Shown here piece after piece: positions 1 through 29,481 of a stretch of DNA of 64,000 bases; position 1 is the first letter of the stretch, and each line of letters starts with the position of its first letter. Under the pieces are notes generated by a model. The model was not told where the DNA came from and did no database searches. It saw only the letters and a list, made by a program, of their open reading frames with translations. Made by a program: the position numbers and the translations under genes. Source of the DNA: Psilocybe cubensis (taxonomy: Eukaryota); contig JAFIQS020000017.1 of assembly GCA_017499595.2 (NCBI GenBank), forward strand, positions 1 through 64,000. The letters run 5' to 3'.

Positions 1-168
1 AAACCCTAAACCCTAAACCCTAAACCCTAAACCCTAAACCCTAAACCCTAAACCCTAAACCCTAAACCCTAAACCCTAAACCCTAAACCCTAAACCCTAA
101 ACCCTAAACCCTAAACCCTAAACCCTAAACCCTAAACCCTAAACCTAAACCCTAAACCCTAAACCCTA
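1..168. repeat. Telomere, (TAAACCC)n / (TTTAGGG)n, left chromosome end
   Basis: Window begins with uninterrupted TAAACCC heptamers, C-rich strand on +. One TAAACC variant at 140-145. Confidence 0.96.
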
Positions 169-723
169 AGCCCTAACCTAACCCCAACCCTAAGCTAACT
201 AAGTCTAACCTTAGTAGGAAGTAAGGTAGGCGTGTGAACTTCCGAAAGGCATGTGATTGTGAAGGGCCGGATCTAATTTAGTACATGGGAAAAGTTACTT
301 AGTACCTCGGGAAAAGTTCCTTAGTACCGTGGAAACATTTTTGATGGACCGGATCATGAACTGTCCAATTAAGATTCACAACAATCAATCAATTGATTGT
401 TAGGTAAGGACCCAGGTAAGCTATTTATACTCTTGACATGAGAATATTCCCATGTCACGGTTACTCGGAGCCACGTAACCAGAGTATTTTATATCCATGT
501 GATTCACATCACAGTCAATAACCCACGATGTCAAAGAACAAAAGTGTTGGATCCACTTTTGACAGGTTACCATGTGCCACATCGACCCGTGACACTCTGT
601 TCATCAGAGATCTGTCTAACTTGACAATAAACATTGACAGATTTGTGATAGTCGGTAAGATACATGACAGCTGCGCAGCATCACTTCACGCGCTGTCATC
701 GGATGTTCCAGAACATTCCTTCT

Positions 724-1728
724 AAGAATAGCCACTGAAGAGTCTATAAAGACGAAAGGGCTGGCTGCTGATAACAATCAACAGCCCTCAAGTACTCGTC
801 CTCTCCCAAACTCCTGCCGCTTGTGCCTTCCCAACTCATCCGGGAGCCCTTTCGTCACTGATCTTGCCCTTGACTCGGGGACGTTTCATCGACATGTTGG
901 CTGCCTCACGGCAAGCGGGGCCCTTTTTCTTTCACTCGCTCACGCCTTCTATGTTGGGTTACGGAGGTCATACAAACTCGTTTTAGTCTAGCTGCGGGGT
1001 TATCCAGCTATGATGACTTTGTAATTCGAGGGCGCGCAGTTCTTCAATGGGTATGGACATCAGGTGAGAGTACACTGGGGGTTGTCAGGACCAGCTCTGC
1101 TGGATACGCTCCTGGCAAGTCGGTTGCAGCCGGCGACACTACCGAATTGCTGGGACGTCCTAAAGCTTGTGGGTACCGCCGACCGCTGGAAACAGCCTAG
1201 GCACCGGTGGCGACCGGGTATGGTAACAATCCCCAAGATTCAGCGAAAGCTGGAATGGATAATCAGCAGCGAATCCGTAACGGTCACGCCGACGGAAGCG
1301 TTCAACGACTAGGTGGTAGTGGGGTCTTCGGATCTTAAGATATAGTCTTGGGAGTGGGGAAACCCACATCTGGTATCTAAACCGCGCCTCGCTGCTTACG
1401 AGGACGGCCCGAAGTCCAGAACCGCTTAAAACGCGGGTGACCCGGCCTCCCCTTAGTAAAGGGAGTTAACACAAGGATGGACAAATAGTTCGTCGCCGGA
1501 AATGAACCTGTGGCTGTAATGGCTGATGTGGCGCCCCTTGGTAAAGGGCTTAAAGGGTATTAGCCTGCCATGTCCAATGGCATGAGAGTGTCCCTTGGTA
1601 AAGGACTTAATAGGCAATAGCCTGCTCTTTTGTCATGAGCGGTATGTAGTGATCGTTTGCCTGTACGGTAGCGCCCATTGCTTGCACTGGTCCACGCCCG
1701 TAAAAAATCACGAGCCGCTGGCCTTCTT
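724..1728 (+). ncRNA. Hammerhead ribozyme split by a group I intron (halves 724-788 and 1718-1728)
   Basis: GCCA-CTGAAGA-GTCT/ATAA/AGAC-GAAA-GGGCTG...CAGCCC-T | insert | C-TGGC. Joining the halves reproduces the intact copy at 6064-6139. Confidence 0.9.
789..1717 (+). mobile_element. Group I intron, subgroup IC1-like, 929 nt (copy 1)
   Basis: Boundaries are defined by comparison with empty units: exon ends in U, intron ends in G. IGS GGGGTTGT (1078-1085) pairs with exon ACAGCCCT (781-788) with the U.G wobble. P AATTGCTGGGA 1145-1155, Q AATCAGCAGC 1261-1270, R GTTCAACGACTA 1300-1311, S AAGATATAGTCT 1337-1348. P3 CACTACC/GGTAGTG, P8 with TTCG loop, P9 GTGGG-GAAA-CCCAC, P5b GCTG-GAAA-CAGC. Confidence 0.93.
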
Positions 1729-1829
1729 TCCATTTAACTCACAGTTTAAACAAGTCGCTCGCACCTCGCTTCGCTCGGTGCTCGCTCCCCCCCTAAACCC
1801 AACGACTTTGCTATTACCCAACAGCTACT

Positions 1830-4800
1830 ATGTCTTCCACTTACTCTGCTGCCTTCTCTCGTGCCATGTCCCCCACCCTGGACGCACTCACCCAGGCTGT
1901 CGTCAACAACACAGTTTTTGGCGTCAACGACGAAGCTGGCCGCCACAACGCCCTCATCGACGAGTTGGCCACTGTCGTCATCAAGAAAATAGCTGAGTGC
2001 CGCTCCATTGACCAGATTGTAGACTGCGTCTTTTTTGACTATCGTGCTGCCCTTAGGGAGTTTCTCCTCAACCTCGCATCGTGGTGCGATAAGAGGGAAA
2101 CAGTCAAGGCTAGCCTCGAGCGCCTTGAACTTGCCGTTAGCGCAGGCAACACCCCCAATCGCCTTCGGGTGAAGGCTCCCGAGTTCCAACTTACGAAGGA
2201 ATTCGCGGATGCCGGGTCAGCGGAAGCTCTTCGAGTTTCCTCTACGTTCTCCACCGCTCGTGATGTCTTCCAAAAGGCAATCAACGACGGCGCCATTCAG
2301 GCGAAAAAGGACGAACTGGCCTTTTGGGATGATAAATGCGCACTCAATAACTGTTATGAAGCTGCTGCCCTCATCGTTAAGACAACTTACGATGATCGCA
2401 AATCCAGCTATAAGCTCCCCGTTTTCTCTACAGACAACAAGGGAGTTCGTCGAATAACAGATTGGGTAGTGTCACCGCAGAAGAAGGCTGAATGCAGCGC
2501 ATTGCAAACCATTTTGCCAGCCATCTTCTCTCATATCAAACAGATTGTCAACTTGCGCCACCGCGCTTTGGCAATCAAGATTGAGAAAAAGCGGTCGACT
2601 GCGGCAACAGCCGATGTCGAGATGGCCGATGCGACCAAACCAGGTCCATCGATTCAATCCCTTATTGATAAGGGCTTGAATGCACGTCTCAAGAAGCTCA
2701 ACCTTGGATCTGTGGGCAAGAAGGCAAGTTCTCGTAACCCTTCACCCATAACTCTGGATACTAATTACTATTCTAATTACCCAGACTTTGTCTGGCCAGA
2801 ATTCGTCCAAGGCTCCTCAACCTCAGGCCAAGAAAGCTGGCCCTTCGAAATTCAAACCCTCGTCGACGCCTTCGCAGAAGAAGCCCCAAACCAAGGCTTC
2901 CAACAAGGTCGACAACAAGAAGAAAGGGAAGGGGAGAGCTCCCGTCAAGAACGATCCAAAGGGAAAGGGAAAGGCAAGAGCCTAGACGCGCGGTCTAATG
3001 TAGTACCTTTTACGTCGGTAAGACCCGCCTTCCCCAACTCTATTCCTGACGATATACTCACCATGACTAAAACAGACGCAGTTTCTTTTGTACACTTACA
3101 TACGCCGATCTCATTCTTGTTGGCTGGCCAGTATCGTAGTAGTGTACACTGTAGTCCTGGTGTGGTGGTCCCTGTAGATATAGCAAATGATTTGTCACTC
3201 GGACTCAATTATATGTTTTTTACTCTACCTTCTCAAAGTCTGATCATGCAAGCATGGAATGATTTTCAACGAAGAATAAGATGGCGTATCTATTTTTTGT
3301 TTAAGGAAGGCATGAACAAACCTTTTGATCCAGATTACGGAGTAAGCTCAAAAAAGAAAGAGAAACCTCCAGTATTACCGCAATACATGGAACTTGGCCT
3401 TTCGATGGGACGTCGGTACGTGCAACGCACGATCGCAAGTATCCCGGAAGAAGCCCTTACGGAGATGCGAAAGCACGCGTTCTCTCCTAAAAGGGACAAG
3501 ATCCGTAAGTTTCTTATCGATAACAACTATGTTATTACGATGACAGATAAGAATCTTGGCCTCGCGGTGTCTGAACGCGACTGGATATTAAGGAATGAGC
3601 TCAATCTTCTTAAAGATGAACGTAACTATGAAGAGTTAGAATTCGAAGTTGCGCAAGAAGTAATGAAGAGCAAAATGATCCAGATGCAAACTCTTGCACA
3701 TACCGTCGAAGATGAACATCTGTTTCTATTTGAACTTGGGTTGTCTCGATTCTTTCTATCGAATGTACCGGAAGACGGATCATCGTTCAAGTACCCTCAA
3801 TTTCATGGTATACCTAAAATCCACAAAAAACCTACTGGATTTAGGCCCATAATTCCGTGTCACTCTGTAGTATTTAATCCTGCAGCCAAGTTTGTATCAA
3901 AAGAGCTTAAGCCGATTATTAAATCGACTCCTTCAATCATTCACGGAACGAAGGATCTCTTTACGAGATTAAGCCAATTGCGTATAGACCCCAAACGACA
4001 ATGGTATTTTGTCACCGGGGATGTAGTTGCTTTCTATCCCAATATTCCGTTGGACTTGTGCATCGAAATCGTTTGTAATATGTACGAGGAATGGTTACTC
4101 AACGCTTCGGAAGAAAACACTGCATTAGCCCATATTAATCCAAATTCGTTAGAGAATAACTTGGTTAAATTGGGCATCTTTAAACGTGCTATCGAGATTG
4201 GCAATACGCAATTGATAACACAACATGGGTCTAGATATTTTAGACAAAAAAATGGCCTCGCAATGGGCGTCGCGGATTCTCCGGACCTTGCTAACCTCTT
4301 TGGAGCCCATTTTGAAATAAAGTCAAAAATCTTAGACCACCCAAACGTGGCCTTCTATGGAAGGTACATCGACGATTGTTTCGCAATTGTTTACGCCGAG
4401 TCCGAAGCACTTGCACTTAATCTTATTAAAGAAACAATAAAGTTCGATGGTTGTGTTATCGAATGGGCTGTTTCCTCGTCGGGATGTCAATTTCTCGATG
4501 CTTTCATATTCAAGGAGTCTGGAAAACTTCATTGGAAGCCATTTGTCAAGACAGGAAACAACCGAGAACGAGTTCCATGGGTATCACATCATCCTTTGGA
4601 CGTCAAACGTGGCGTCTACATTGGAGAGTTATCCAGGTTAGCCGTGCTATGTAGTACCAAGGAAATCTACATCGGAGCAATTAGAGACCTTAACGCTCTC
4701 TATTTGATGCGCGGTTATCCCGAAAACCTAGTCATGTCTTGGTGTAAGAAGAATATACAAGAACGTTGGGAAAAGCGATTCGCTTTACGAGTCGCAGAGC

Positions 4801-5360
4801 ACGACGAATCCATTCTTGTACTTAAAACCAGATTTGATCAGGTATGGAATTGGTTTTCAGCTGCTGAACTTGGAAAAACTGTTACCGAGTACTGGTCGGC
4901 ATGGTATGAACATGCCGAGAAAGGTTTGTATAGTGCAGACTCGTCCAGACCCCTTATCAAACCAGATCCAAATTACGTTCACGACCTCGATGATGTTCGC
5001 CCGGAGCTGTTCACACAGATCCTCGTGGACGGAGAAACTGAGTTCGTACCGGATTTGAGGAAGATAGGACTACTCGGAAGTCGTTGGATAGTATCGCGAA
5101 AACGCAATACTAATCTTTTCGACCTTGCAAATGTGTGGAAGAAAACAGTCTTTCGTAAACTGGATGAAGACATCGCTGAAAAAGGTGGTGTTGTTCCCGA
5201 AACTCAAAACGTTAATGAAACTTATCATTCTGCTTTAGTTGAAGCTGCTGAACAGATAAGTATCGAAAGTGATAACGAGATAATACTTCATAGACGTTCA
5301 ATCTCACAAGAGAGGGAACATCCAGAATTCGGCAGAATATCCAAATCTTACAACCGATGA
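1830..5360 (+). CDS. Penelope-like ORF1-reverse transcriptase polyprotein, 1176 aa, subfamily A (copy 1)
   Basis: HGIPKIHKKPTGFRPII, FVTGDVVAFYPNI (motif A), QKNGLAMGVADSPDLANLF (B), YGRYIDDCF (C), FLD, thumb region RGYP. Helical N-terminal region; no endonuclease domain. Confidence 0.93.
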   Translation: MSSTYSAAFSRAMSPTLDALTQAVVNNTVFGVNDEAGRHNALIDELATVVIKKIAECRSIDQIVDCVFFDYRAALREFLLNLASWCDKRETVKASLERLELAVSAGNTPNRLRVKAPEFQLTKEFADAGSAEALRVSSTFSTARDVFQKAINDGAIQAKKDELAFWDDKCALNNCYEAAALIVKTTYDDRKSSYKLPVFSTDNKGVRRITDWVVSPQKKAECSALQTILPAIFSHIKQIVNLRHRALAIKIEKKRSTAATADVEMADATKPGPSIQSLIDKGLNARLKKLNLGSVGKKASSRNPSPITLDTNYYSNYPDFVWPEFVQGSSTSGQESWPFEIQTLVDAFAEEAPNQGFQQGRQQEEREGESSRQERSKGKGKGKSLDARSNVVPFTSVRPAFPNSIPDDILTMTKTDAVSFVHLHTPISFLLAGQYRSSVHCSPGVVVPVDIANDLSLGLNYMFFTLPSQSLIMQAWNDFQRRIRWRIYFLFKEGMNKPFDPDYGVSSKKKEKPPVLPQYMELGLSMGRRYVQRTIASIPEEALTEMRKHAFSPKRDKIRKFLIDNNYVITMTDKNLGLAVSERDWILRNELNLLKDERNYEELEFEVAQEVMKSKMIQMQTLAHTVEDEHLFLFELGLSRFFLSNVPEDGSSFKYPQFHGIPKIHKKPTGFRPIIPCHSVVFNPAAKFVSKELKPIIKSTPSIIHGTKDLFTRLSQLRIDPKRQWYFVTGDVVAFYPNIPLDLCIEIVCNMYEEWLLNASEENTALAHINPNSLENNLVKLGIFKRAIEIGNTQLITQHGSRYFRQKNGLAMGVADSPDLANLFGAHFEIKSKILDHPNVAFYGRYIDDCFAIVYAESEALALNLIKETIKFDGCVIEWAVSSSGCQFLDAFIFKESGKLHWKPFVKTGNNRERVPWVSHHPLDVKRGVYIGELSRLAVLCSTKEIYIGAIRDLNALYLMRGYPENLVMSWCKKNIQERWEKRFALRVAEHDESILVLKTRFDQVWNWFSAAELGKTVTEYWSAWYEHAEKGLYSADSSRPLIKPDPNYVHDLDDVRPELFTQILVDGETEFVPDLRKIGLLGSRWIVSRKRNTNLFDLANVWKKTVFRKLDEDIAEKGGVVPETQNVNETYHSALVEAAEQISIESDNEIILHRRSISQEREHPEFGRISKSYNR
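2724..2784 (+). other. Putative 61-nt GC-AG spliceosomal intron inside the ORF. Equivalents at 9539-9599, 14685-14745, 19827-19887, 25034-25094, 30376-30436
   Basis: AAG|GCAAGT donor, CTAAT branch-like motifs, CCAG| acceptor, and length typical of fungal introns. Splicing joins codon 298 in frame to the Lys-rich frame ending at 2985. Confidence 0.75.
2785..2985 (+). CDS. Alternative-frame exon 2 giving the basic C-terminal tail of a spliced ~364-aa ORF1 protein (1830-2723 + 2785-2985)
   Basis: TLSGQNSSKAPQPQAKKAGPSK...KKKGKGRAPVKNDPKGKGKARA*. Open in all six copies; the A/B difference includes an in-frame 3-nt indel and K/R swaps. Confidence 0.7.
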   Translation, partial: TLSGQNSSKAPQPQAKKAGPSKFKPSSTPSQKKPQTKASNKVDNKKKGKGRAPVKNDPKGKGKARA

Positions 5361-6063: not shown

Positions 6064-6139
6064 AAGAATAGCCACTGAAGAGTCTATAAAGACGAAAGGG
6101 CTGGCTGCTGATAACAATCAACAGCCCTCTGGCCTTCTT
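6064..6139 (+). ncRNA. Type I hammerhead ribozyme, intact (stem III variant A); predicted cleavage after C6129
   Basis: Stem I GCCA/TGGC extended by AAGAA/TTCTT, core CTGAAGA, stem II GTCT-ATAA-AGAC, GAAA, stem III GGGCTG/CAGCCC, then the T-C site. Confidence 0.92.
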
Positions 6140-6795
6140 TCCATTTAACTCACAGTTTAAACAAGTCGCTCGCACCTCGCTTCGCTCGGTGCTCGCTCCC
6201 CCCCTAAACCTAAACCCTAAACCCTAAACCCTAAACCCTAACCTAACCCCAACCCTAAGCTAACTAAGTCTAACCTTAGTAGGAAGTAAGGTAGGCGTGT
6301 GAACTTCCGAACGGCATGTGATTGTGAAGGGCCGGATCTAATTTAGTACATGGGAAAAGTTACTTAGTACTTCGGGAAAAGTTCCTTAGTACCGTGGAAA
6401 CATTTTTGATGGACCGGATCATGAACTGTCCAATTAAGATTCACAACAATCAATCATTCTATTGTTTGATTGTTAGGTAAGGACCCAGGTAAGCTATTTA
6501 TACTCTAGACATGTGAATATTCCCATGTCGCGGTTACTCGGAGCCACGTAACCAGAGTAATCTATATCCATGTGATTCACATCACAGTCAATAACCCACG
6601 ATGTCAAAGAACAAAAGTGTTGGATCCACTTTTGACAGGTTACCATGTGCCACATCGACCCGTGACACTCTGTTCATCAGAGACCTGTCTAACTTGACAA
6701 TAAACATTGACAGATTTGTGATAGTCGGTAAGATACATGACAGCTGCGCAGCATCACTTCACGCGCTGTCATCGGATGTCTAGAACATTCCTTCT

Positions 6796-6871
6796 AAGAA
6801 TAGCCACTGAAGAGTCTATAAAGACGAAAGGGCTGGTTGTTGGGATCCCCCAACAGCCCTCTGGCCTTCTT
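6796..6871 (+). ncRNA. Type I hammerhead ribozyme, intact (stem III variant B)
   Basis: Same core and stems; distal stem III is GTTGTTGGGATCCCCCAA. Confidence 0.92.
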
Positions 6872-7601
6872 TCTATTTCAAACTCACAGTTTAAACTAGT
6901 CGCTCGCACCTCGCTTCGCTCGGTGCTCGCTCCCCCCCTAAACCCTAAACCTAAACCCTAAACCCTAAACCCTAAACCCTAACCTAACCCCAACCCTAAG
7001 CTAACTAAGTCTAACCTTAGTAGGAAGTAAGGTAGGCGTGTGAACTTCCGAACGGCATGTGATTGTGAAGGGCCGGATCTAATTTAGTACATGGGAAAAG
7101 TTACTTAGTACTTCGGGAAAAGTTCCTTAGTACCGTGGAAACATTTTTGATGGACCGGATCATGAACTGTCCAATTAAGATTCACAACAATCAATCATTC
7201 TATTGTTTGATTGTTAGGTAAGGACCCAGGTAAGCTATTTATACTCTAGACATGTGAATATTCCCATGTCGCGGTTACTCGGAGCCACGTAACCAGAGTA
7301 ATCTATATCCATGTGATTCACATCACAGTCAATAACCCACGATGTCAAAGAACAAAAGTGTTGGATCCACTTTTGACAGGTTACCATGTGCCACATCGAC
7401 CCGTGACACTCTGTTCATCAGAGACCTGTCTAACTTGACAATAAACATTGACAGATTTGTGATAGTCGGTAAGATACATGACAGCTGCGCAGCATCACTT
7501 CACGCGCTGTCATCGGATGTCTAGAACATTCCTTCTAAGAATAGCCACTGAAGAGTCTATAAAGACGAAAGGGCTGGTTGTTGGGATCCCCCAACAGCCC
7601 T

Positions 7602-8530
7602 CAAGTACTCGTCCTCTCCCAAACTCCTGCCGCTTGTGCCTTCCCAACTCATCCGGGAGCCCTTTCGTCACTGATCTTGCCCTTGACTCGGGGACGTTTC
7701 ATCGACATGTTGGCTGCCTCACGGCAAGCGGGGCCCTTTTTCTTTCACTCGCTCACGCCTTCTATGTTGGGTTACGGAGGTCATACAAACTCGTTTTAGT
7801 CTAGCTGCGGGGTTATCCAGCTATGATGACTTTGTAATTCGAGGGCGCGCAGTTCTTCAATGGGTATGGACATCAGGTGAGAGTACACTGGGGGTTGTCA
7901 GGACCAGCTCTGCTGGATACGCTCCTGGCAAGTCGGTTGCAGCCGGCGACACTACCGAATTGCTGGGACGTCCTAAAGCTTGTGGGTACCGCCGACCGCT
8001 GGAAACAGCCTAGGCACCGGTGGCGACCGGGTATGGTAACAATCCCCAAGATTCAGCGAAAGCTGGAATGGATAATCAGCAGCGAATCCGTAACGGTCAC
8101 GCCGACGGAAGCGTTCAACGACTAGGTGGTAGTGGGGTCTTCGGATCTTAAGATATAGTCTTGGGAGTGGGGAAACCCACATCTGGTATCTAAACCGCGC
8201 CTCGCTGCTTACGAGGACGGCCCGAAGTCCAGAACCGCTTAAAACGCGGGTGACCCGGCCTCCCCTTAGTAAAGGGAGTTAACACAAGGATGGACAAATA
8301 GTTCGTCGCCGGAAATGAACCTGTGGCTGTAATGGCTGATGTGGCGCCCCTTGGTAAAGGGCTTAAAGGGTATTAGCCTGCCATATCCAATGGCATGAGA
8401 GTGTCCCTTGGTAAAGGACTTAATAGGCAATAGCCTGCTCTTTTGTCATGAGCGGTATGTAGTGATCGTTTGCCTGTACGGTAGCGCCCATTGCTTGCAC
8501 TGGTCCACGCCCGTAAAAAATCACGAGCCG
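7602..8530 (+). mobile_element. Group I intron IC1-like, 929 nt (copy 2), interrupting the hammerhead that starts at 7537
   Basis: Same insertion point CAGCCCT|...GAGCCG|CTGGCC; near-identical to copy 1. Confidence 0.93.
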
Positions 8531-8644
8531 CTGGCCTTCTTTCTATTTCAAACTCACAGTTTAAACTAGTCGCTCGCACCTCGCTTCGCTCGGTGCTCGC
8601 TCCCCCCCTAAACCCAACGACTTTGCTATCACCCATCAGTTACC

Positions 8645-11600
8645 ATGTCATCCCAATACTCTGCTGCATTCTCTCGTGCCATGTCCCCTACCCTGGACGC
8701 ACTCACCCAGGCCGTCGTCAACAACACTGTCTTCGGCGTCAACGATGAAGCAGGCCGCCATAACGCTCTTATCGACGAGCTGGCCACTGTGGTCATCAAA
8801 AAAATAGCTGAGTGCCGCTCCGTTGACCAAGTCATAGACTGCGTCTTTTTTGACTATCGTGCTGCCCTCAGGGAGTTTCTCCTCAACCTCGCATCGTGGT
8901 GCGACAAGAGGGAAACAGTCAAGGCTAGCCTCGAGCGCCTTGAATCTGCCGTTAGCGCAGGCAACACGCCCAATCGCCTTAAGGTGAAGGCACCCGAGTT
9001 CCAACTTACGAAGGAATTCGCGGATGCCGGGTCAGCGGAGGCTCTTCGAGTCTCCACTACGTTCTCTTCCGCTCGTGATGCCTTCCAAAAGGCAATTAAC
9101 GACGGCGCCGTTCAGGCGAAAAAGGACGAGCTGGCTTTTTGGGATGATAAATGCGCACTCAACTCTTGCTACGAAGCTGCTGCCCTCATCGTTAAGGCAA
9201 CTTACGATGATCGCAAATCCAGCTACAAGCTCCCTGTTTTCTCTACAGACAACAAGGGAGTTCGACGTATAGCAGAGTGGGTAGTGTCTCCGCAAAAGAA
9301 AGCCGAATGCAGTGCGCTGCAAACTATACTGCCGGCGATCTTTTCTCATATCAAACAGATTGTCAACATGCGCCACCGCGCCTTGGCAATTAAGATTGAG
9401 AAAAAGCGGACGACTGCGGCAACAGCCGATGTCGAGATGGCCGATGCGACCAAACCAGGTCCATCGATTCAATCCCTTATTGATAAGGGCTTGAATGCAC
9501 GTCTCAAAAAGCTCAACCTTGGATCTGTGGGCAAGAAGGCAAGTTTTCGTAACCCTTCACCCATAATTCTGGACACTAATTATTACTCTAATTACCCAGA
9601 CTTTGTCTGGCCAGAATTCGTCCAAGGCTCCTCAACCTCAGGCCAGGAAAGCTGGCCCTTCGAAACCCAAGTCGTCGTCGACGCCTTCGCAGAGGAAGCC
9701 TCAAACCAAGGCTTCCAACAAGGTCGACAACAAGAAGAAAGGGAAGGGGAGAGCTCCCGTCAAGAACAACGATCCAAAGGGAAAGGGAAAGGCAAGAGCC
9801 TAGACGCGCGGTCTACTGTAGCATCATTTACGTCGGTGAGACCCGCCTTCCCCAACTCTATTCCTGACGATATACTCACCATGACTAAAACAGACGCAGT
9901 TTCTTTTGTACACCTCAATACCCCGATTTCATTCTTATTGGCTGGCCAGTATAGATCTAGTGTACACTGTAGTCCTGGTGTTTCGGTCCCTGTTGATGTA
10001 GCAAATGATTTATCTCTTGGACTCAATTATATGTTTTTTACACTGCCTTCTAAAAATCTGATCATGCAAGCATGGAATGATTTTCAACGAAGAATAAGAT
10101 GGCGTATCTATTTTTTGTTTAAAGAAGGCATGAATAAACCTTTCGATCCAGACTATGGAGTAAGCTCTAAAAAGAAAGAGAAACCTCCAATGTTACCGCA
10201 ATTTATGGAACTTGGCCTTTCAATGGGACGTCGGTACGTTATTAAAACGATCGCAAGTATCCCGGAAGAAGCCCTTAAAGAGATGCGAAAGCACGCGTTC
10301 TCTCCTAAAAGGGACAAGATCCAAAAGTTTCTTTTCGATAACAACTATGTTATTACGATGACAGATAAGAATCTTGGCCTCGCGGTGTCTGAACGCGACT
10401 GGATATTAAGGAATGAGCTCAATCTTCTTGAAGATGAACGCAACTACGAAGAGTTAGAATTCGAAGTTGCGCAAGAAGTTATGAAGAGCAAAATGATTCA
10501 GATGCAAACTCTCGCACGTACCGTCGAAGATGAACATCTGTTTCTATTTGAACTTGGGTTGTCTCGATTCTTTCTATCGAATGTACCGGAAGACGGATCA
10601 TCGTTCAAGTATCCTCAATTTCATGGTATACCTAAAATCCACAAGAAACCTACTGGATTTAGGCCCATAATTCCGTGTCACTCTGTAGTATTTAATCCTG
10701 CAGCCAAGTTTGTATCAAAAGAGCTTAAGCCGATTATTAAATCGACTCCTTCAATCATTCACGGAACGAAGGATCTCTTTACGAGATTAAGCCAATTGCG
10801 TATAGACCCCAAACGACAATGGTATTTTGTCACCGGGGATGTAGTTGCTTTCTATCCCAATATTCCGTTGGACTTGTGCATCGAAATCGTTTGTAATATG
10901 TACGAGGAATGGTTACTCAACGCTTCGGAAGAGAACACTGCATTAGCCCATATTAATCCAAATTCGTTAGAGAATAACTTGGTTAAATTGGGCATCTTTA
11001 AACGTGCTATCGAGATTGGCAATACGCAATTGATAACACAACATGGGTCTAGATATTTTAGACAAAAAAATGGCCTCGCAATGGGCGTCGCGGATTCTCC
11101 GGACCTTGCTAACCTCTTTGGAGCCCATTTTGAAATAAAGTCAAATATCTTAGACCACCCAAACGTGGCCTTCTATGGAAGGTACATCGACGATTGTTTC
11201 GCAATTGTTTACGCCGAGTCCGAAGCACTTGCACTTAATCTTATTAAAGAAACAATAAAGTTCGATGGTTGTGTTATCGAATGGGCTGTTTCCTCGTCGG
11301 GATGTCAATTTCTCGATGCTTTCATATTCAAGGAGTCTGGAAAACTTCATTGGAAGCCATTTGTCAAGACAGGAAACAACCGAGAACGAGTTCCATGGGT
11401 ATCACATCATCCTTTGGACGTCAAACGTGGCGTCTACATTGGAGAGTTATCCAGGTTAGCCGTGCTATGTAGTACCAAGGAAATCTACATCGGAGCAATT
11501 AGAGACCTTAACGCTCTCTATTTGATGCGCGGTTATCCCGAAAACCTAGTCATGTCTTGGTGTAAGAAGAATATACAAGAACGTTGGGAAAAGCGATTCG

Positions 11601-12178
11601 CTTTACGAGTCGCAGAGCACGACGAATCCATTCTTGTACTTAAAACCAGATTTGATCAGGTATGGAATTGGTTTTCAGCTGCTGAACTTGGAAAGACTGT
11701 TACCGAGTACTGGTCGGCATGGTATGAACATGCCGAGAAAGGTCTGTATAGTGCAGACTCGTCCAGACCCCTTATCAAACCAGATCCAAATTACGTTCAC
11801 GACCTCGATGATGTTCGCCCGGAGCTGTTCACACAGATCCTCGTGGACGGAGAAACTGAGTTCGTACCGGATTTGAGGAAGATAGGACTACTCGGAAGTC
11901 GTTGGATAGTATCGCGAAAGCGCAATACTAATCTTTTCGACCTTGCAAATGTGTGGAAGAAAACAGTTTTTCGTAAACTGGATGAAGACATTGCCGAAAA
12001 AGGTGGTGTTGTTCCCGAAACTCAAAACGTTAATGAAACTTATCATTCTGCTCTAGTTGAAGCTGCTGAACAGATAAGTATCGAAAGTGATAACGAGATA
12101 ATACTTCATAGACGTTCAATCTCACAAGAGAAGGAACATCCAGAATTCGGCAGAATATCCAAATCTTACAACCGATGA
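8645..12178 (+). CDS. Penelope-like ORF1-RT, 1177 aa, subfamily B (copy 2)
   Basis: Intact ORF with the same RT motifs (YIDD). N-terminus MSSQYS marks subfamily B. Confidence 0.93.
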   Translation: MSSQYSAAFSRAMSPTLDALTQAVVNNTVFGVNDEAGRHNALIDELATVVIKKIAECRSVDQVIDCVFFDYRAALREFLLNLASWCDKRETVKASLERLESAVSAGNTPNRLKVKAPEFQLTKEFADAGSAEALRVSTTFSSARDAFQKAINDGAVQAKKDELAFWDDKCALNSCYEAAALIVKATYDDRKSSYKLPVFSTDNKGVRRIAEWVVSPQKKAECSALQTILPAIFSHIKQIVNMRHRALAIKIEKKRTTAATADVEMADATKPGPSIQSLIDKGLNARLKKLNLGSVGKKASFRNPSPIILDTNYYSNYPDFVWPEFVQGSSTSGQESWPFETQVVVDAFAEEASNQGFQQGRQQEEREGESSRQEQRSKGKGKGKSLDARSTVASFTSVRPAFPNSIPDDILTMTKTDAVSFVHLNTPISFLLAGQYRSSVHCSPGVSVPVDVANDLSLGLNYMFFTLPSKNLIMQAWNDFQRRIRWRIYFLFKEGMNKPFDPDYGVSSKKKEKPPMLPQFMELGLSMGRRYVIKTIASIPEEALKEMRKHAFSPKRDKIQKFLFDNNYVITMTDKNLGLAVSERDWILRNELNLLEDERNYEELEFEVAQEVMKSKMIQMQTLARTVEDEHLFLFELGLSRFFLSNVPEDGSSFKYPQFHGIPKIHKKPTGFRPIIPCHSVVFNPAAKFVSKELKPIIKSTPSIIHGTKDLFTRLSQLRIDPKRQWYFVTGDVVAFYPNIPLDLCIEIVCNMYEEWLLNASEENTALAHINPNSLENNLVKLGIFKRAIEIGNTQLITQHGSRYFRQKNGLAMGVADSPDLANLFGAHFEIKSNILDHPNVAFYGRYIDDCFAIVYAESEALALNLIKETIKFDGCVIEWAVSSSGCQFLDAFIFKESGKLHWKPFVKTGNNRERVPWVSHHPLDVKRGVYIGELSRLAVLCSTKEIYIGAIRDLNALYLMRGYPENLVMSWCKKNIQERWEKRFALRVAEHDESILVLKTRFDQVWNWFSAAELGKTVTEYWSAWYEHAEKGLYSADSSRPLIKPDPNYVHDLDDVRPELFTQILVDGETEFVPDLRKIGLLGSRWIVSRKRNTNLFDLANVWKKTVFRKLDEDIAEKGGVVPETQNVNETYHSALVEAAEQISIESDNEIILHRRSISQEKEHPEFGRISKSYNR

Positions 12179-12882: not shown

Positions 12883-12958
12883 AAGAATAGCCACTGAAGA
12901 GTCTATAAAGACGAAAGGGCTGGTTGTTGGGATCCCCCAACAGCCCTCTGGCCTTCTT
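12883..12958 (+). ncRNA. Hammerhead ribozyme, intact (variant B)
   Basis: Same motif as 6796-6871. Confidence 0.9.
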
Positions 12959-13610: not shown

Positions 13611-13686
13611 AAGAATAGCCACTGAAGAGTCTATAAAGACGAAAGGGCTGGTTGTTGGGATCCCCCAACAGCCCTCTGGCCTTCTT
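13611..13686 (+). ncRNA. Hammerhead ribozyme, intact (variant B), upstream of ORF copy 3
   Basis: Same motif, no intron. Confidence 0.9.
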
Positions 13687-13789: not shown

Positions 13790-16700
13790 ATGTCATCCCA
13801 ATACTCTGCTGCATTCTCTCGTGCCATGTCCCCTACCCTGGACGCACTCACCCAGGCCGTCGTCAACAACACTGTCTTCGGCGTCAACGATGAAGCAGGC
13901 CGCCATAACGCTCTTATCGACGAGCTGGCCACTGTGGTCATCAAAAAAATAGCTGAGTGCCGCTCCGTTGACCAAGTCATAGACTGCGTCTTTTTTGACT
14001 ATCGTGCTGCCCTCAGGGAGTTTCTCCTCAACCTCGCATCGTGGTGCGACAAGAGGGAAACAGTCAAGGCTAGCCTCGAGCGCCTTGAATCTGCCGTTAG
14101 CGCAGGCAACACGCCCAATCGCCTTAAGGTGAAGGCACCCGAGTTCCAACTTACGAAGGAATTCGCGGATGCCGGGTCAGCGGAGGCTCTTCGAGTCTCC
14201 ACTACGTTCTCTTCCGCTCGTGATGCCTTCCAAAAGGCAATTAACGACGGCGCCGTTCAGGCGAAAAAGGACGAGCTGGCTTTTTGGGATGATAAATGCG
14301 GCGCTCAACTCTTGCTACGAAGCTGCTGCCCTCATCGTTAAGGCAACTTACGATGATCGCAAATCCAGCTACAAGCTCCCTGTTTTCTCTACAGACAACA
14401 AGGGAGTTCGACGTATAGCAGAGTGGGTAGTGTCTCCGCAAAAGAAAGCCGAATGCAGTGCGCTGCAAACTATACTGCCGGCGATCTTTTCTCATATCAA
14501 ACAGATTGTCAACATGCGCCACCGCGCCTTGGCAATTAAGATTGAGAAAAAGCGGACGACTGCGGCAACAGCCGATGTCGAGATGGCCGATGCGACCAAA
14601 CCAGGTCCATCGATTCAATCCCTTATTGATAAGGGCTTGAATGCACGTCTCAAAAAGCTCAACCTTGGATCTGTGGGCAAGAAGGCAAGTTTTCGTAACC
14701 CTTCACCCATAATTCTGGACACTAATTATTACTCTAATTACCCAGACTTTGTCTGGCCAGAATTCGTCCAAGGCTCCTCAACCTCAGGCCAGGAAAGCTG
14801 GCCCTTCGAAACCCAAGTCGTCGTCGACGCCTTCGCAGAGGAAGCCTCAAACCAAGGCTTCCAACAAGGTCGACAACAAGAAGAAAGGGAAGGGGAGAGC
14901 TCCCGTCAAGAACAACGATCCAAAGGGAAAGGGAAAGGCAAGAGCCTAGACGCGCGGTCTACTGTAGCATCATTTACGTCGGTGAGACCCGCCTTCCCCA
15001 ACTCTATTCCTGACGATATACTCACCATGACTAAAACAGACGCAGTTTCTTTTGTACACCTCAATACCCCGATTTCATTCTTATTGGCTGGCCAGTATAG
15101 ATCTAGTGTACACTGTAGTCCTGGTGTTTCGGTCCCTGTTGATGTAGCAAATGATTTATCTCTTGGACTCAATTATATGTTTTTTACACTGCCTTCTAAA
15201 AATCTGATCATGCAAGCATGGAATGATTTTCAACGAAGAATAAGATGGCGTATCTATTTTTTGTTTAAAGAAGGCATGAATAAACCTTTCGATCCAGACT
15301 ATGGAGTAAGCTCTAAAAAGAAAGAGAAACCTCCAATGTTACCGCAATTTATGGAACTTGGCCTTTCAATGGGACGTCGGTACGTTATTAAAACGATCGC
15401 AAGTATCCCGGAAGAAGCCCTTAAAGAGATGCGAAAGCACGCGTTCTCTCCTAAAAGGGACAAGATCCAAAAGTTTCTTTTCGATAACAACTATGTTATT
15501 ACGATGACAGATAAGAATCTTGGCCTCGCGGTGTCTGAACGCGACTGGATATTAAGGAATGAGCTCAATCTTCTTGAAGATGAACGCAACTACGAAGAGT
15601 TAGAATTCGAAGTTGCGCAAGAAGTTATGAAGAGCAAAATGATTCAGATGCAAACTCTCGCACGTACCGTCGAAGATGAACATCTGTTTCTATTTGAACT
15701 TGGGTTGTCTCGATTCTTTCTATCGAATGTACCGGAAGACGGATCATCGTTCAAGTATCCTCAATTTCATGGTATACCTAAAATCCACAAGAAACCTACT
15801 GGATTTAGGCCCATAATTCCGTGTCACTCTGTAGTATTTAATCCTGCAGCCAAGTTTGTATCAAAAGAGCTTAAGCCGATTATTAAATCGACTCCTTCAA
15901 TCATTCACGGAACGAAGGATCTCTTTACGAGATTAAGCCAATTGCGTATAGACCCCAAACGACAATGGTATTTTGTCACCGGGGATGTAGTTGCTTTCTA
16001 TCCCAATATTCCGTTGGACTTGTGCATCGAAATCGTTTGTAATATGTACGAGGAATGGTTACTCAACGCTTCGGAAGAGAACACTGCATTAGCCCATATT
16101 AATCCAAATTCGTTAGAGAATAACTTGGTTAAATTGGGCATCTTTAAACGTGCTATCGAGATTGGCAATACGCAATTGATAACACAACATGGGTCTAGAT
16201 ATTTTAGACAAAAAAATGGCCTCGCAATGGGCGTCGCGGATTCTCCGGACCTTGCTAACCTCTTTGGAGCCCATTTTGAAATAAAGTCAAAAATCTTAGA
16301 CCACCCAAACGTGGCCTTCTATGGAAGGTACATCGACGATTGTTTCGCAATTGTTTACGCCGAGTCCGAAGCACTTGCACTTAATCTTATTAAAGAAACA
16401 ATAAAGTTCGATGGTTGTGTTATCGAATGGGCTGTTTCCTCGTCGGGATGTCAATTTCTCGATGCTTTCATATTCAAGGAGTCTGGAAAACTTCATTGGA
16501 AGCCATTTGTCAAGACAGGAAACAACCGAGAACGAGTTCCATGGGTATCACATCATCCTTTGGACGTCAAACGTGGCGTCTACATTGGAGAGTTATCCAG
16601 GTTAGCCGTGCTATGTAGTACCAAGGAAATCTACATCGGAGCAATTAGAGACCTTAACGCTCTCTATTTGATGCGCGGTTATCCCGAAAACCTAGTCATG

Positions 16701-17324
16701 TCTTGGTGTAAGAAGAATATACAAGAACGTTGGGAAAAGCGATTCGCTTTACGAGTCGCAGAGCACGACGAATCCATTCTTGTACTTAAAACCAGATTTG
16801 ATCAGGTATGGAATTGGTTTTCAGCTGCTGAACTTGGAAAGACTGTTACCGAGTACTGGTCGGCATGGTATGAACATGCCGAGAAAGGTTTGTATAGTGC
16901 AGACTCGTCCAGACCCCTTATCAAACCAGATCCAAATTACGTTCACGACCTCGATGATGTTCGCCCGGAGCTGTTCACACAGATCCTCGTGGACGGAGAA
17001 ACTGAGTTCGTACCGGATTTGAGGAAGATAGGACTACTCGGAAGTCGTTGGATAGTATCGCGAAAACGCAATACTAATCTTTTCGACCTTGCAAATGTGT
17101 GGAAGAAAACAGTCTTTCGTAAACTGGATGAAAACATCGCTGAAAAAGGTGGTGTTGTTCCCGAAACTCAAAACGTTAATGAAACTTATCATTCTGCTTT
17201 AGTTGAAGCTGCTGAACAGATAAGTATCGAAAGTGATAACGAGATAATACTTCATAGACGTTCAATCTCACAAGAGAGGGAACATCCAGAATTCGGCAGA
17301 ATATCCAAATCTTACAACCGATGA
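13790..17324 (+). pseudogene. Penelope-like ORF1-RT, subfamily B, +1 frameshift near 14300 (copy 3)
   Basis: AAATGCGGCGCTCAAC versus AAATGCGCACTCAAC in copy 2. The ORF splits into 13790-14341 and 14169-17324. Confidence 0.88.
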
Positions 17325-18034: not shown

Positions 18035-18110
18035 AAGAATAGCCACTGAAGAGTCTATAAAGACGAAAGGGCTGGTTGTTGGGATCCCCCAACAGCCCTC
18101 TGGCCTTCTT
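18035..18110 (+). ncRNA. Hammerhead ribozyme, intact (variant B)
   Basis: Same motif. Confidence 0.9.
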
Positions 18111-18755: not shown

Positions 18756-18831
18756 AAGAATAGCCACTGAAGAGTCTATAAAGACGAAAGGGCTGGCTGC
18801 TGATAACAATCAACAGCCCTCTGGCCTTCTT
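18756..18831 (+). ncRNA. Hammerhead ribozyme, intact (variant A), upstream of ORF copy 4
   Basis: Same motif, no intron. Confidence 0.9.
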
Positions 18832-18932: not shown

Positions 18933-21900
18933 ATGTCTTCCACTTACTCTGCTGCCTTCTCTCGTGCCATGTCCCCCACCCTGGACGCACTCACCCAGGC
19001 TGTCGTCAACAACACAGTTTTTGGCGTCAACGACGAAGCTGGCCGCCACAACGCCCTCATCGACGAGTTGGCCACTGTCGTCATCAAGAAAATAGCTGAG
19101 TGCCGCTCCATTGACCAGATTGTAGACTGCGTCTTTTTTGACTATCGTGCTGCCCTTAGGGAGTTTCTCCTCAACCTCGCATCGTGGTGCGATAAGAGGG
19201 AAACAGTCAAGGCTAGCCTCGAGCGCCTTGAACTTGCCGTTAGCGCAGGCAACACCCCCAATCGCCTTCGGGTGAAGGCTCCCGAGTTCCAACTTACGAA
19301 GGAATTCGCGGATGCCGGGTCAGCGGAAGCTCTTCGAGTTTCCTCTACGTTCTCCACCGCTCGTGATGTCTTCCAAAAGGCAATCAACGACGGCGCCATT
19401 CAGGCGAAAAAGGACGAACTGGCCTTTTGGGATGATAAATGCGCACTCAATAACTGTTATGAAGCTGCTGCCCTCATCGTTAAGACAACTTACGATGATC
19501 GCAAATCCAGCTATAAGCTCCCCGTTTTCTCTACAGACAACAAGGGAGTTCGTCGAATAACAGATTGGGTAGTGTCACCGCAGAAGAAGGCTGAATGCAG
19601 CGCATTGCAAACCATTTTGCCAGCCATCTTCTCTCATATCAAACAGATTGTCAACTTGCGCCACCGCGCTTTGGCAATCAAGATTGAGAAAAAGCGGTCG
19701 ACTGCGGCAACAGCCGATGTCGAGATGGCCGATGCGACCAAACCAGGTCCATCGATTCAATCCCTTATTGATAAGGGCTTGAATGCACGTCTCAAGAAGC
19801 TCAACCTTGGATCTGTGGGCAAGAAGGCAAGTTCTCGTAACCCTTCACCCATAATTCTGGATACTAATTACTATTCTAATTACCCAGACTTTGTCTGGCC
19901 AGAATTCGTCCAAGGCTCCTCAACCTCAGGCCAAGAAAGCTGGCCCTTCGAAATTCAAACCCTCGTCGACGCCTTCGCAGAAGAAGCCCCAAACCAAGGC
20001 TTCCAACAAGGTCGACAACAAGAAGAAAGGGAAGGGGAGAGCTCCCGTCAAGAACGATCCAAAGGGAAAGGGAAAGGCAAGAGCCTAGACGCGCGGTCTA
20101 ATGTAGTACCTTTTACGTCGGTAAGACCCGCCTTCCCCAACTCTATTCCTGACGATATACTCACCATGACTAAAACAGACGCAGTTTCTTTTGTACACTT
20201 ACATACGCCGATCTCATTCTTGTTGGCTGGCCAGTATCGTAGTAGTGTACACTGTAGTCCTGGTGTGGTGGTCCCTGTAGATATAGCAAATGATTTGTCA
20301 CTCGGACTCAATTATATGTTTTTTACTCTGCCTTCTCAAAGTCTGATCATGCAAGCATGGAATGATTTTCAACGAAGAATAAGATGGCGTATCTATTTTT
20401 TGTTTAAGGAAGGCATGAACAAACCTTTTGATCCAGATTACGGAGTAAGCTCAAAAAAGAAAGAGAAACCTCCAGTATTACCGCAATACATGGAACTTGG
20501 CCTTTCGATGGGACGTCGGTACGTGCAACGCACGATCGCAAGTATCCCGGAAGAAGCCCTTACGGAGATGCGAAAGCACGCGTTCTCTCCTAAAAGGGAC
20601 AAGATCCGTAAGTTTCTTATCGATAACAACTATGTTATTACGATGACAGATAAGAATCTTGGCCTCGCGGTGTCTGAACGCGACTGGATATTAAGGAATG
20701 AGCTCAATCTTCTTGAAGATGAACGTAACTATGAAGAGTTAGAATTCGAAGTTGCGCAAGAAGTAATGAAGAGCAAAATGATCCAGATGCAAACTCTTGC
20801 ACGTACCGTCGAAGATGAACATCTGTTTCTATTTGAACTTGGGTTGTCTCGATTCTTTCTATCGAATGTACCGGAAGACGGATCATCGTTCAAGTATCCT
20901 CAATTTCATGGTATACCTAAAATCCACAAAAAACCTACTGGATTTAGACCCATAATTCCGTGTCACTCTGTAGTATTTAATCCTGCAGCCAAGTTTGTAT
21001 CAAAAGAGCTTAAGCCGATTATTAAATCGACTCCTTCAATCATTCACGGAACGAAGGATCTCTTTACGAGATTAAGCCAATTGCGTATAGACCCCAAACG
21101 ACAATGGTATTTTGTCACCGGGGATGTAGTTGCTTTCTATCCCAATATTCCGTTGGACTTGTGCATCGAAATCGTTTGTAATATGTACGAGGAATGGTTA
21201 CTCAACGCTTCGGAAGAAAACACTGCATTAGCCCATATTAATCCAAATTCGTTAGAGAATAACTTGGTTAAATTGGGCATCTTTAAACGTGCTATCGAGA
21301 TTGGCAATACGCAATTGATAACACAACATGGGTCTAGATATTTTAGACAAAAAAATGGCCTCGCAATGGGCGTCGCGGATTCTCCGGACCTTGCTAACCT
21401 CTTTGGAGCCCATTTTGAAATAAAGTCAAAAATCTTAGACCACCCAAACGTGGCCTTCTATGGAAGGTACATCGACGATTGTTTCGCAATTGTTTACGCC
21501 GAGTCCGAAGCACTTGCACTTAATCTTATTAAAGAAACAATAAAGTTCGATGGTTGTGTTATCGAATGGGCTGTTTCCTCGTCGGGATGTCAATTTCTCG
21601 ATGCTTTCATATTCAAGGAGTCTGGAAAACTTCATTGGAAGCCATTTGTCAAGACAGGAAACAACCGAGAACGAGTTCCATGGGTATCACATCATCCTTT
21701 GGACGTCAAACGTGGCGTCTACATTGGAGAGTTATCCAGGTTAGCCGTGCTATGTAGTACCAAGGAAATCTACATCGGAGCAATTAGAGACCTTAACGCT
21801 CTCTATTTGATGCGCGGTTATCCCGAAAACCTAGTCATGTCTTGGTGTAAGAAGAATATACAAGAACGTTGGGAAAAGCGATTCGCTTTACGAGTCGCAG

Positions 21901-27673: not shown

Positions 27674-28440
27674 AAAGAATACTAGCGCTTAAGGCGTAAA
27701 GCATTAGAAAAAAACCCTAACCGTAAGTATTCCTTGCTACAAAGTAACAAACATCTACTTACAAGCAACACATTGGATTAAATAGCTAAACCTAAACCTA
27801 AACCCTAAACCCTAAACCCTAAGCCCTAACCTAACCCCAACCCTAAGCTAACTAAGTCTAACCTTAGTAGGAAGTAAGGTAGGCGTGTGAACTTCCGAAC
27901 GGCATGTGATTGTGAAGGGCCGGATCTAATTTAGTACATGGGAAAAGTTACTTAGTACCTCGGGAAAAGTTCCTTAGTACCGTGGAAACATTTTTGATGG
28001 ACCGGATCATGAACTGTCCAATTAAGATTCACAACAATCAATCAATTGATTGTTAGGTAAGGACCCAGGTAAGCTATTTATACTCTAGACATGTGAATAT
28101 TCCCATGTCGCGGTTACTCGGAGCCACGTAACCAGAGTACTCTATATCCATGTGATTCACATCACAGTCAATAACCCACGATGTCAAAGAACAAAAGTGT
28201 TGGATCCACTTTTGACAGGTTACCATGTGCCACATTGACCCGTGACACTCTGTTCATCAGAGACCTGTCTAACTTGACAATAAACATTGACAGATTTGTG
28301 ATAGTCGGTAAGATACATGACAGCTGCGCAGCATCACTTCACGCGCTGTCATCGGATGTCTAGAACATTCCTTCTAAGAATAGCCACTGAAGAGTCTATA
28401 AAGACGAAAGGGCTGGTTGTTGGTACCCCCCAACAGCCCT

Positions 28441-29369
28441 CAAGTACTCGTCCTCTCCCAAACTCCTGCCGCTTGTGCCTTCCCAACTCATCCGGGAGCC
28501 CTTTCGTCACTGATCTTGCCCTTGACTCGGGGACGTTTCATCGACATGTTGGCTGCCTCACGGCAAGCGGGGCCCTTTTTCTTTCACTCGCTCACGCCTT
28601 CTATGTTGGGTTACGGAGGTCATACAAACTCGTTTTAGTCTAGCTGCGGGGATATCCAGCTATGATGACTTTGTAATTCGAGGGCGCGCAGTTCTTCAAT
28701 GGGTATGGACATCAGGTGAGAGTACACTGGGGGTTGTCAGGACCAGCTCTGCTGGATACGCTCCTGGCAAGTCGGTTGCAGCCGGCGACACTACCGAATT
28801 GCTGGGACGTCCTAAAGCTTGTGGGTACCGCCGACCGCTGGAAACAGCCTAGGCACCGGTGGCGACCGGGTATGGTAACAATCCCCAAGATTCAGCGAAA
28901 GCTGGAATGGATAATCAGCAGCGAATCCGTAACGGTCACGCCGACGGAAGCGTTCAACGACTAGGTGGTAGTGGGGTCTTCGGATCTTAAGATATAGTCT
29001 TGGGAGTGGGGAAACCCACATCTGGTATCTAAACCGCGCCTCGCTGCTTACGAGGACGGCCCGAAGTCCAGAACCGCTTAAAACGCGGGTGACCCGGCCT
29101 CCCCTTAGTAAAGGGAGTTAACACAAGGATGGACAAATAGTTCGTCGCCGGAAATGAACCTGTGGCTGTAATGGCTGATGTGGCGCCCCTTGGTAAAGGG
29201 CTTAAAGGGTATTAGCCTGCCATGTCCAATGGCATGAGAGTGTCCCTTGGTAAAGGACTTAATAGGCAATAGCCTGCTCTTTTGTCATGAGCGGTATGTA
29301 GTGATCGTTTGCCTGTACGGTAGCGCCCATTGCTTGCACTGGTCCACGCCCGTAAAAAATCACGAGCCG
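28441..29369 (+). mobile_element. Group I intron IC1-like, 929 nt (copy 3), interrupting the hammerhead that starts at 28376
   Basis: Same insertion point and motifs as copies 1 and 2. Confidence 0.93.
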
Positions 29370-29481
29370 CTGGCCTTCTTTCCATTTAACTCACAGTTTA
29401 AACAAGTCGCTCGCACCTCGCTTCGCTCGGTGCTCGCTCCCCCCCTAAACCCAACGACTTTGCTATTACCCAACAGCTACC

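Follow-up and report, generated by a model that had tools for sequence, protein, structure and literature searches.

The window analysed here is a stretch of 64,000 nucleotides (nt) of Psilocybe cubensis DNA (assembly GCA_017499595.2, contig JAFIQS020000017.1, positions 1 to 64,000 of the forward strand), which opens at a chromosome end, with a 34-kb head-to-tail array of one retroelement coming next. The repeat units of this array carry hammerhead ribozymes, and three of these are interrupted inside the cleavage triplet by a 929-nt insert that has the core and the boundaries of a group I intron.

Because its telomere adjacency, CTAAACC runs, hammerheads and reverse transcriptase (RT) open reading frame (ORF) without an endonuclease domain match published summaries (PMC8557442 and PMC4209133, in the parts available), the array element is assigned to the endonuclease-less, telomere-associated Penelope-like elements (PLEs) of the Coprina/Athena type, by matching features and not by placement of the RT on a reference tree. 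The array is composed of full units of ~4.41 kb (six copies) and short units of ~0.73 kb, and internal CTAAACC runs follow every ORF. The RT ORF carries a YIDD-type RT motif and is 99% identical to Psilocybe cubensis proteins, one of which is named 'reverse transcriptase domain-containing'. A Pfam scan finds no endonuclease domain, GIY-YIG included, in the RT ORF; it does not detect RVT_1 in the window RT either, yet RVT_1 is precomputed for the 99%-identical protein. A profile search against the Protein Data Bank (PDB) gives a single marginal RT match (E = 0.47), and the nearest feature clusters are eukaryotic, mostly rotifer, with RVT_1, DUF8422 and HTH_animal. The telomere and the RT ORFs (lengths in amino acids, aa) are as follows.

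1..176, no strand: terminal telomere array (AAACCCT)x25 (TRF: period 7, 25.3 copies, 98% matches)
1830..5360, + strand: RT ORF, 1176 aa, in the unit downstream of intron 1
8645-12178, 18933-22463 and 29482-33012, + strand: other intact RT ORFs
13790-17324 and 24139-27673, + strand: frameshifted RT ORF copies

Hammerhead ribozymes of the element

The 33-nt 5' half of the hammerhead occurs in the window in 12 exact copies, all on the + strand, against 0 expected in 100 shuffles. These correspond to 12 type I hammerheads: nine intact ones and three with a break between U16.1 and C17.

6071-6133, 6803-6865, 12890-12952, 13618-13680 and 18042-18104, + strand: intact hammerheads (motif, paired stems)
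18763-18825, 23174-23236, 23969-24031 and 33722-33784, + strand: the remaining intact hammerheads (motif, paired stems)
731..788, + strand: 5' portion of hammerhead copy 1 (5' strand of stem I, CUGAAGA, stem II, GAAA, stem III to U16.1)
1718..1722, + strand: scissile C17 and stem I 3' strand UGGC of copy 1, with predicted cleavage between 1718 and 1719
7544..7601, + strand: hammerhead copy 4, interrupted 5' part
8531..8535, + strand: C17 and stem I 3' strand of copy 4
28383..28440, + strand: hammerhead copy 11, interrupted 5' part
29370..29374, + strand: C17 and stem I 3' strand of copy 11

The intact copies have the architecture GCCA / CUGAAGA / GUCU-AUAA-AGAC / GAAA / stem III / U-C / UGGC, with all core nucleotides, an open helix I of 4 base pairs (bp), a helix II of 4 bp, a long helix III and the cleavage triplet C-U-C. 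The features that define the type I motif, namely CUGANGA, GAA, A15.1-U16.1, H17 and three helices, are present in all nine, in agreement with an earlier sequence-only reading of this DNA that had counted nine units with a complete type I hammerhead. The hammerhead fold lies at most 2.6 kcal/mol from the minimum free energy (MFE). The Rfam check proposed in that reading failed for the hammerhead: Hammerhead_1 has no match in the window, and RAGATH-1-hammerhead (25.3 and 23.0 vs 56.3) and Hammerhead_3 (19.5 vs 48.5) stay below their gathering scores. The hammerhead calls in the window and in the relatives rest on a strict motif-and-helix finder, not on Rfam models.

The relatives are 80 metagenomic loci encoding RT homologues at 31-66% identity. 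The same hammerhead architecture is found in 33 of them, in every case on the RT strand and in none on the opposite strand, and all three helices vary in sequence yet stay paired across these loci. The distance from H17 to the predicted start codon is 82-138 nt in 24 of the 26 loci with a hammerhead upstream of the ORF. The hammerhead is a known, conserved part of the element, and a fungal telomere-associated PLE hammerhead of like architecture, from Serpula lacrymans, self-cleaves in vitro with kobs values of 1.97 and 0.16 per min, as given in the accessible portion of PMC4209133.

A group I intron inside the cleavage triplet

The three inserts and the parts of the first one are as follows.

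789..1717, + strand: copy 1 of the group I intron, 929 nt long, with omega-G1717 as its last nucleotide (73 bits with Rfam RF00028 at 992-1369; boundaries set by intron-less paralogues)
7602..8530, + strand: group I intron copy 2 (1 difference from copy 1)
28441..29369, + strand: group I intron copy 3 (differs at 1 position from copy 1 and at 2 from copy 2)
781..796, + strand: P1 5' strand, made of the 5' exon ACAGCCCU (hammerhead stem III 3' strand) and the first intron nucleotides
797..1068, + strand: large L1 insertion within P1 (272-nt loop), with no recognisable ORF or RNA family
1069..1085, + strand: internal guide sequence (P1 3' strand), directly upstream of P2
1086..1135, + strand: P2 and P2.1 hairpins (sequence inspection, constrained fold)
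1137..1367, + strand: catalytic core P3-P9 (Rfam alignment, pair counts over five family members)
Core helices: P3 1137-43/1315-21; P4 1148-53/1263-68; extended P5; P6; P8; P9 1354-67 with a GAAA loop
1305-11/1343-48, + strand: P7, with G1307-C1347
1370..1716, + strand: 3' domain of 347 nt with three repeated CCCUU-loop-AAGGG hairpin modules (fold)

All three inserts pass the gathering score of the Rfam model RF00028 (Intron_gpI), scoring 73, 73 and 70.9 bits against 50. A U precedes the 5' splice site and G1717 is the last nucleotide of the insert. The junction is ambiguous by 1 nt, with a C on either side, and this U/...G/ placement (slashes mark the splice sites) was chosen because it is the sole one that fits group I chemistry. 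Placed in this way, the inserts lie between U16.1 and C17, inside the C-U-C cleavage triplet, and part the strands of stem I. The position of the inserts, their group I core and their boundaries thus stand as the sequence-only reading had described them. An assembly artefact was considered and ruled out, since an independent assembly contig (run X5, 988 nt, window 760-1748) spans the intron and both junctions, and these are also covered by raw DNA reads from a second strain (X17). A mitochondrial or ribosomal DNA (rDNA) origin of the X17 reads is likewise unsupported, because their intron depth is about one third of the element ORF depth.

The core helices are paired in 92.5% of 134 cells over five family members, as against 28-49% with slid partners, and 8 of 27 pairs are altered on both sides, with a covariation score of 0.319 versus 0.04-0.13 for slid partners; this set comprises five sequences, in two of which P9 is misaligned by 1 column. 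P7, with A1305-U1348, a bulged C1306 and G1307-C1347 onward, is invariant in all five. A constrained fold gives P2, P2.1, a P5 extension of ~90 nt with two GAAA-capped hairpins and an L9 GAAA loop, so that subgroup IC1 is plausible by inspection, with IE as a possible alternative. There is no endonuclease-like ORF in the insert, where the longest wholly internal stop-to-stop frame has 108 aa and none of the six frames tested has a Pfam match; nor is there a second Rfam family, the lariat-capping ribozyme included. The insert would be a splicing-competent, ORF-less group I intron, an identification that shares the better-than-even standing of the explanation favoured below. The 3' domain is partly kept in one of the related introns (intron a of locus L072; blastn 68% over 299 nt). 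Its hairpin module, CCCUU-GGUA-AAGGG with CUUAA and another small hairpin after it, stands at 1448-1470, 1533-1556 and 1590-1612 in the window and matches 39 nt at 92% in the distant loci L070 (609-647) and L079 (1308-1346). It may be a protein-binding or mobile mini-module.

Guide pairing and mutually exclusive folds

The guide segment 1076-1085 base-pairs with 8 nucleotides at the end of the exon (ACAGCCCU) and 2 at the start of the intron, U788-G1078 being a wobble pair, and P1 is extended by 5 bp between 792-796 and 1069-1073. The duplex 781-796/1069-1085 has a predicted stability of -20.5 to -23.2 kcal/mol, and P1 is present in the unconstrained MFE folds of all three intron copies. An exon match of at least 8 bp arises anywhere in 334 nt in 106 of 5000 shuffles, and the actual match lies at the expected place.

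Because the exon strand of P1 is the 3' strand of hammerhead stem III, the intron fold and the hammerhead fold are mutually exclusive, P1 (-23.2) being more stable than stem III (-11.2 to -17.3 kcal/mol). Joining of U788 to C1718 would rebuild exactly the hammerhead of the nine intact copies. Given the position of the intron within the cleavage triplet and the incompatibility of the two folds, it is reasonable to suppose on mechanical grounds, from the anatomy, that splicing must precede cleavage.

Recent and precise spread among copies

The three introns differ from each other at 1-2 of 929 nt and their flanks by 3-7%. The upstream 560 nt fall into three types (A, B and C), each with one intron-bearing copy, that are 15-19 mismatches plus indels apart; copies 1 and 2 are separated there by 18 mismatches and 16 gap positions, and 37 differences fall in the 500 nt that directly follow introns 1 and 2. 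The flank differences nearest to the intron lie 11 nt upstream and 14 nt downstream. The intron is absent from nine of the 12 hammerheads and from three of the six full-length units in the window. Unit 1 with the intron and unit 8 without it differ at 7 positions in ~3750 nt, with identical flanks, and the combination of upstream type C with downstream type alpha occurs in the window only with the intron, at 28440/29370. In strain X17, the read depth rises from ~80-115 over the intron to ~280-340 where the ORF starts, and is ~1250-1650 upstream of the hammerhead; the reads include intron-less joints and at least two intron haplotypes. Runs X19 and X20, guessed to be RNA, each yield one contig that matches only window 1718-1797 before continuing into unlike sequence, and they are uninformative.

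An intron ancestral to all types should show ~3-7% divergence, as the flanks do, and so the intron entered at least 2-3 element lineages recently, at the same bond and without flank markers. Because near-identical inserts stand in diverged flanks and intron-less copies are otherwise identical, the intron has spread recently and precisely. The boundaries of the polymorphism are the predicted splice sites, as RNA-level gain or loss predicts.

Spread at the DNA level, by homing through an endonuclease encoded elsewhere or by ectopic gene conversion in the array, with the intron merely spliced from RNA, would also place the same insert in several copies. Occupation of the same site in alleles or paralogues is typical of classic homing, tandem telomeric arrays are prone to recombination, and endonuclease genes may lie outside the window covered. 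However, the intron carries no endonuclease ORF, and the island of identity reaches no further than 11 nt upstream and 14 nt downstream of the intron, whereas co-conversion of flank markers is the norm in repair-based homing. Moreover, the host element encodes an RT and replicates through RNA, so that an RNA route is ready at hand. DNA-level spread is therefore considered unlikely.

Related introns in metagenomic elements

A search of the 80 related loci for the invariant group I R and S core elements reveals five group I introns in four loci, all on the RT strand between the hammerhead and the ORF body; of the 26 loci in which a hammerhead is detected upstream of the ORF, 24 have no intron. 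The two introns of L072 score 72.8 and 76.5 bits with RF00028 (cut-off 50). Those of L053, L064 and L070 score 34.2, 31.6 and 39.6 bits, under this cut-off, with E-values of ~1e-4 to 4.7e-7 and exact core elements. Every resolved related intron reads U/C...G/C and has a guide sequence complementary to its own site; the match is 9 bp in L053, and P1 of L072 intron a is built like that of the window.

The sites of these introns differ from that in the window. The L053 intron (444-1514) lies 4 nt downstream of the cleavage site, within the stem I 3' strand, and the fifth base pair is maintained by the first C of the intron. For L072 intron a (1905-2750), also downstream, the distance is 14 nt, judged against an intron-less comparator, and the L064 intron stands further down the leader, its boundaries being ambiguous within ~730-750. 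At all three sites, the hammerhead stays whole without splicing. Pairwise similarity between the intron lineages is only ~67-68%, so the changes of site are old. As judged from these positions, the intron family has occupied several sites in a short stretch around the cleavage site, mostly leaving the hammerhead whole. This clustering is perhaps due to the excised intron making short hops into the transcript it came from, or to tolerance of insertions in the leader.

The hammerhead beside L072 intron a (1830-1904) has an A-C mismatch at the innermost stem I pair, and an intron-less hammerhead copy in the same locus (8190-8253) has a perfect 5-bp stem.

A second intron, with its core at 3018-3331 (76.5 bits), is contained in L072 2843-3800. 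It comes directly after an ATG TCN start typical of the family, at 2843, which would lie 106 nt from the hammerhead once intron a is removed. This second intron may split the first RT codons and so make splicing obligatory for translation, which is offered as a lead and not as a claim. A specific version, in which the RT ORF is split after codon 5, was dropped: 5' sites at 2857, 2860, 2882 and 2913 fit the guide about equally, many in-frame 3' sites are possible, and an internal ATG at 3797 is an alternative start. A search with the joined N-terminus found no relative.

The sequence-only reading had interpreted the arrangement as a two-step ribozyme cascade, in which intron splicing evolved as a regulatory gate for hammerhead processing of the telomeric retroelement RNA. 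The location of the intron inside the cleavage triplet, the use of a stem III strand for P1 and the mutual exclusion of the folds are what such a gate would look like. In addition, all three window introns stand ahead of ORF-bearing units, and about one third of the ORF-start depth is intron-bearing in strain X17. However, the homologous introns of the relatives, at +4 in L053, at +14 in L072 and further downstream in L064, leave a hammerhead that is complete without splicing, and most copies, both in the array and among the metagenomic loci, have no intron at all. Near-identical introns in diverged flanks also indicate recent invasion and not long-maintained regulation. An evolved cascade that controls RNA processing is thus unsupported as a design and is regarded as improbable.

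A proposed selfish intron family moving at the RNA level

The explanation favoured here, with somewhat more confidence than doubt, is that a selfish, ORF-less group I intron family lives in PLE leaders and moves at the RNA level, the gating of the hammerhead being a by-product in the present case. The family would reside in the 5' leader of fungal telomere-associated PLEs, and its homing site in this genome would be the bond between U16.1 and C17 of the element hammerhead. In the precursor RNA, P1 would form between the guide sequence 1069-1085 and the 3' strand of stem III. Splicing initiated by GTP would then ligate U788 and C1718, and the hammerhead restored in this way could cleave after C1718. 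To pass between resident copies, the intron would either reverse-splice into the conserved ACAGCCCU/C site or be carried over by template switching. The RT of the element itself would copy the intron-bearing RNA, and copying of spliced RNA would yield the intron-less versions. Spread of the family is thus probably at the RNA level. The delay of cleavage until splicing would be a consequence and not the reason for the presence of the intron, and such gating is likely in this lineage, with no conserved design behind it.

Several points weigh against this explanation. From the sequence, P10 can have no more than 1 bp (C1718-G1077), the 272-nt loop inside P1 is unusually large, and the 3' domain is 347 nt long. 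The stem III hairpin, stable and formed first during transcription, could trap the 5' splice site. The introns precede three of the six full-length units and none of the six short units, and this bias, although the numbers are small, hints at linkage or at a function beyond a purely selfish model. The islands of identity could also arise without reverse splicing, if the RT switched templates in the conserved flanks of 10-13 nt, or if gene-conversion tracts were unusually short. Finally, it is possible that a trans-acting endonuclease or an rDNA copy of the intron exists elsewhere in the genome, the analysis being of the window; a high-copy rDNA location is disfavoured because the intron depth in X17 is only ~100.

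The near absence of P10 and the very large L1 and 3' extension would also suit a dead, never-spliced group I relic that simply disables three hammerhead copies, as would the confinement of nuclear group I introns on record to rDNA, where all known ones interrupt ribosomal RNA (rRNA) genes according to the available parts of the reviews PMC3679873, PMC8395846 and PMC9223047. In contrast, the core is intact in all copies, with the 2 variable positions among the three introns located in L1 and the 3' domain, and among the X17 intron variant sites listed, none of nine falls in the core 1069-1369, a further 58 rows of variants lying outside that listing. The guide sequence fits its own site, the core helices covary across the family, and the presence/absence boundaries coincide exactly with the predicted splice sites. 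A dead relic is therefore very unlikely.

A bolder form of the selfish-intron explanation holds that the family is old and diversified, is the first nuclear group I family outside rDNA, and re-invades by reverse splicing and the RT of the element, one lineage having settled in the cleavage triplet. This form falls somewhat short of even confidence. If true, it would provide a natural example of the long-postulated RNA route of group I mobility, with self-cleavage made dependent on self-splicing in one lineage.

Comparison with known systems

The Tetrahymena large subunit (LSU) intron exemplifies the nuclear rDNA group I introns (IC1/IE). The window intron shares with this class the R and S core elements, a P7 with a bulged nucleotide and a G-C pair, the U-G wobble, omega-G, P2/P2.1, the extended P5 and the L9 GAAA loop. 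It differs in its location in telomeric retrotransposon RNA, its low copy number, its 272-nt P1 loop and its 347-nt 3' domain.

The group I introns in the leaders of distant relatives are new here and would be the first in a nucleus outside rRNA genes, so that the family would open a new genomic niche and break the rule of rRNA genes only. The host transcript is presumably non-nucleolar, a setting in which the folding, splicing and survival of such introns call for an explanation. Support for the spread of group I introns by reverse splicing and reverse transcription has so far been mostly indirect. The present array offers a natural test system for RNA-level mobility, because the host makes its own RT and near-identical copies with and without the intron stand in marked flanks.

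The hammerheads resemble those of fungal telomere PLEs (Cervera and de la Peña 2014, PMC4209133, in the part available) in being of type I, with a long helix III and short helices I and II, in repeats flanking the RT ORF. Unlike these, the ribozyme here contains an intron; group I introns are mentioned in the accessible text of that paper only in relation to GIY-YIG endonucleases. Penelope elements retain a spliceosomal intron (Arkhipova et al. 2003, as cited in the same text), so that there, too, a retroelement keeps an intron through RNA-mediated replication and an intron end lies near the hammerhead. That intron is spliceosomal and animal, however, whereas the window intron is of a self-splicing type and fungal.

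The twin-ribozyme introns of Didymium and Naegleria (PMC4167309, in the sections available) also have a ribozyme nested in a ribozyme and an ordered processing. In them, an inner lariat-capping ribozyme sits in a peripheral loop of an rDNA group I intron and serves an endonuclease mRNA, whereas in the window the inner element is the group I intron, which interrupts a hammerhead in its catalytic core.

The discontinuous hammerhead in the 3' untranslated region (UTR) of mammalian Clec2 genes has its strands hundreds of nucleotides apart, with the spacer in a stem loop, and works without removal of the spacer. In the window, the spacer stands between U16.1 and C17; a closer parallel is the L053 hammerhead, whose intron is inserted 4 nt into the 3' strand of stem I. 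A self-splicing ribozyme that breaks and then exactly restores a self-cleaving one would be a natural design for ordered RNA processing, reusable in RNA engineering. The elements extend chromosome ends, and control of their RNA processing therefore bears on telomere maintenance in these fungi.

No report of group I introns in Penelope-like/Coprina, hammerhead or telomeric retroelements was found in the full-text literature, with two central PLE papers (Gladyshev and Arkhipova, from 2007, and Arkhipova et al., from 2017) and supplements beyond its coverage. This agrees with the view of the sequence-only reading that no such arrangement had been described.

Further observations on the array and its neighbourhood

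The frameshifted RT ORFs, found in two of the six full units, consist of two overlapping frames of 183 aa and 1051 aa, and no intron stands ahead of either. The short units have the first 80 nt of the leader in common with the full units and then continue into telomeric repeats from a CCCTAAACC seed in the leader (switch regions at window 1718-1800, 6129-6260, 6861-7000 and 33780-33910), and the innermost end of the array reads leader(80), (CCCTAAA)x8 and unique DNA. The switch at CCCTAAACC suggests priming or template switching at an internal telomere-like site. Template jumps at the cleavage site may likewise contribute to the building of the array.

The leader motif CTCGCTTCGCTCG, after which comes a CCCACCC-TAA(A)C box, is kept across elements whose RTs share just 31-46% identity. 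It is located at 1766-1780 in the window, ~226-240 in L048, ~1560-1575 in L053, ~736-750 in L064, ~747-760 in L070 and 2760-2775 in L072, and the L064 intron lies apparently within or beside it.

The terminal repeat is of the 7-nt CCCTAAA type in the window (1-176) and CCCTAA in some related loci (L064 110-125; L072 8300-8315), and the element-internal repeats mirror whichever telomere repeat type the locus has. In the subtelomere, an ankyrin-repeat ORF of 867 aa (window 50587-53190) is made of 99-nt and 297-nt tandem DNA repeats.

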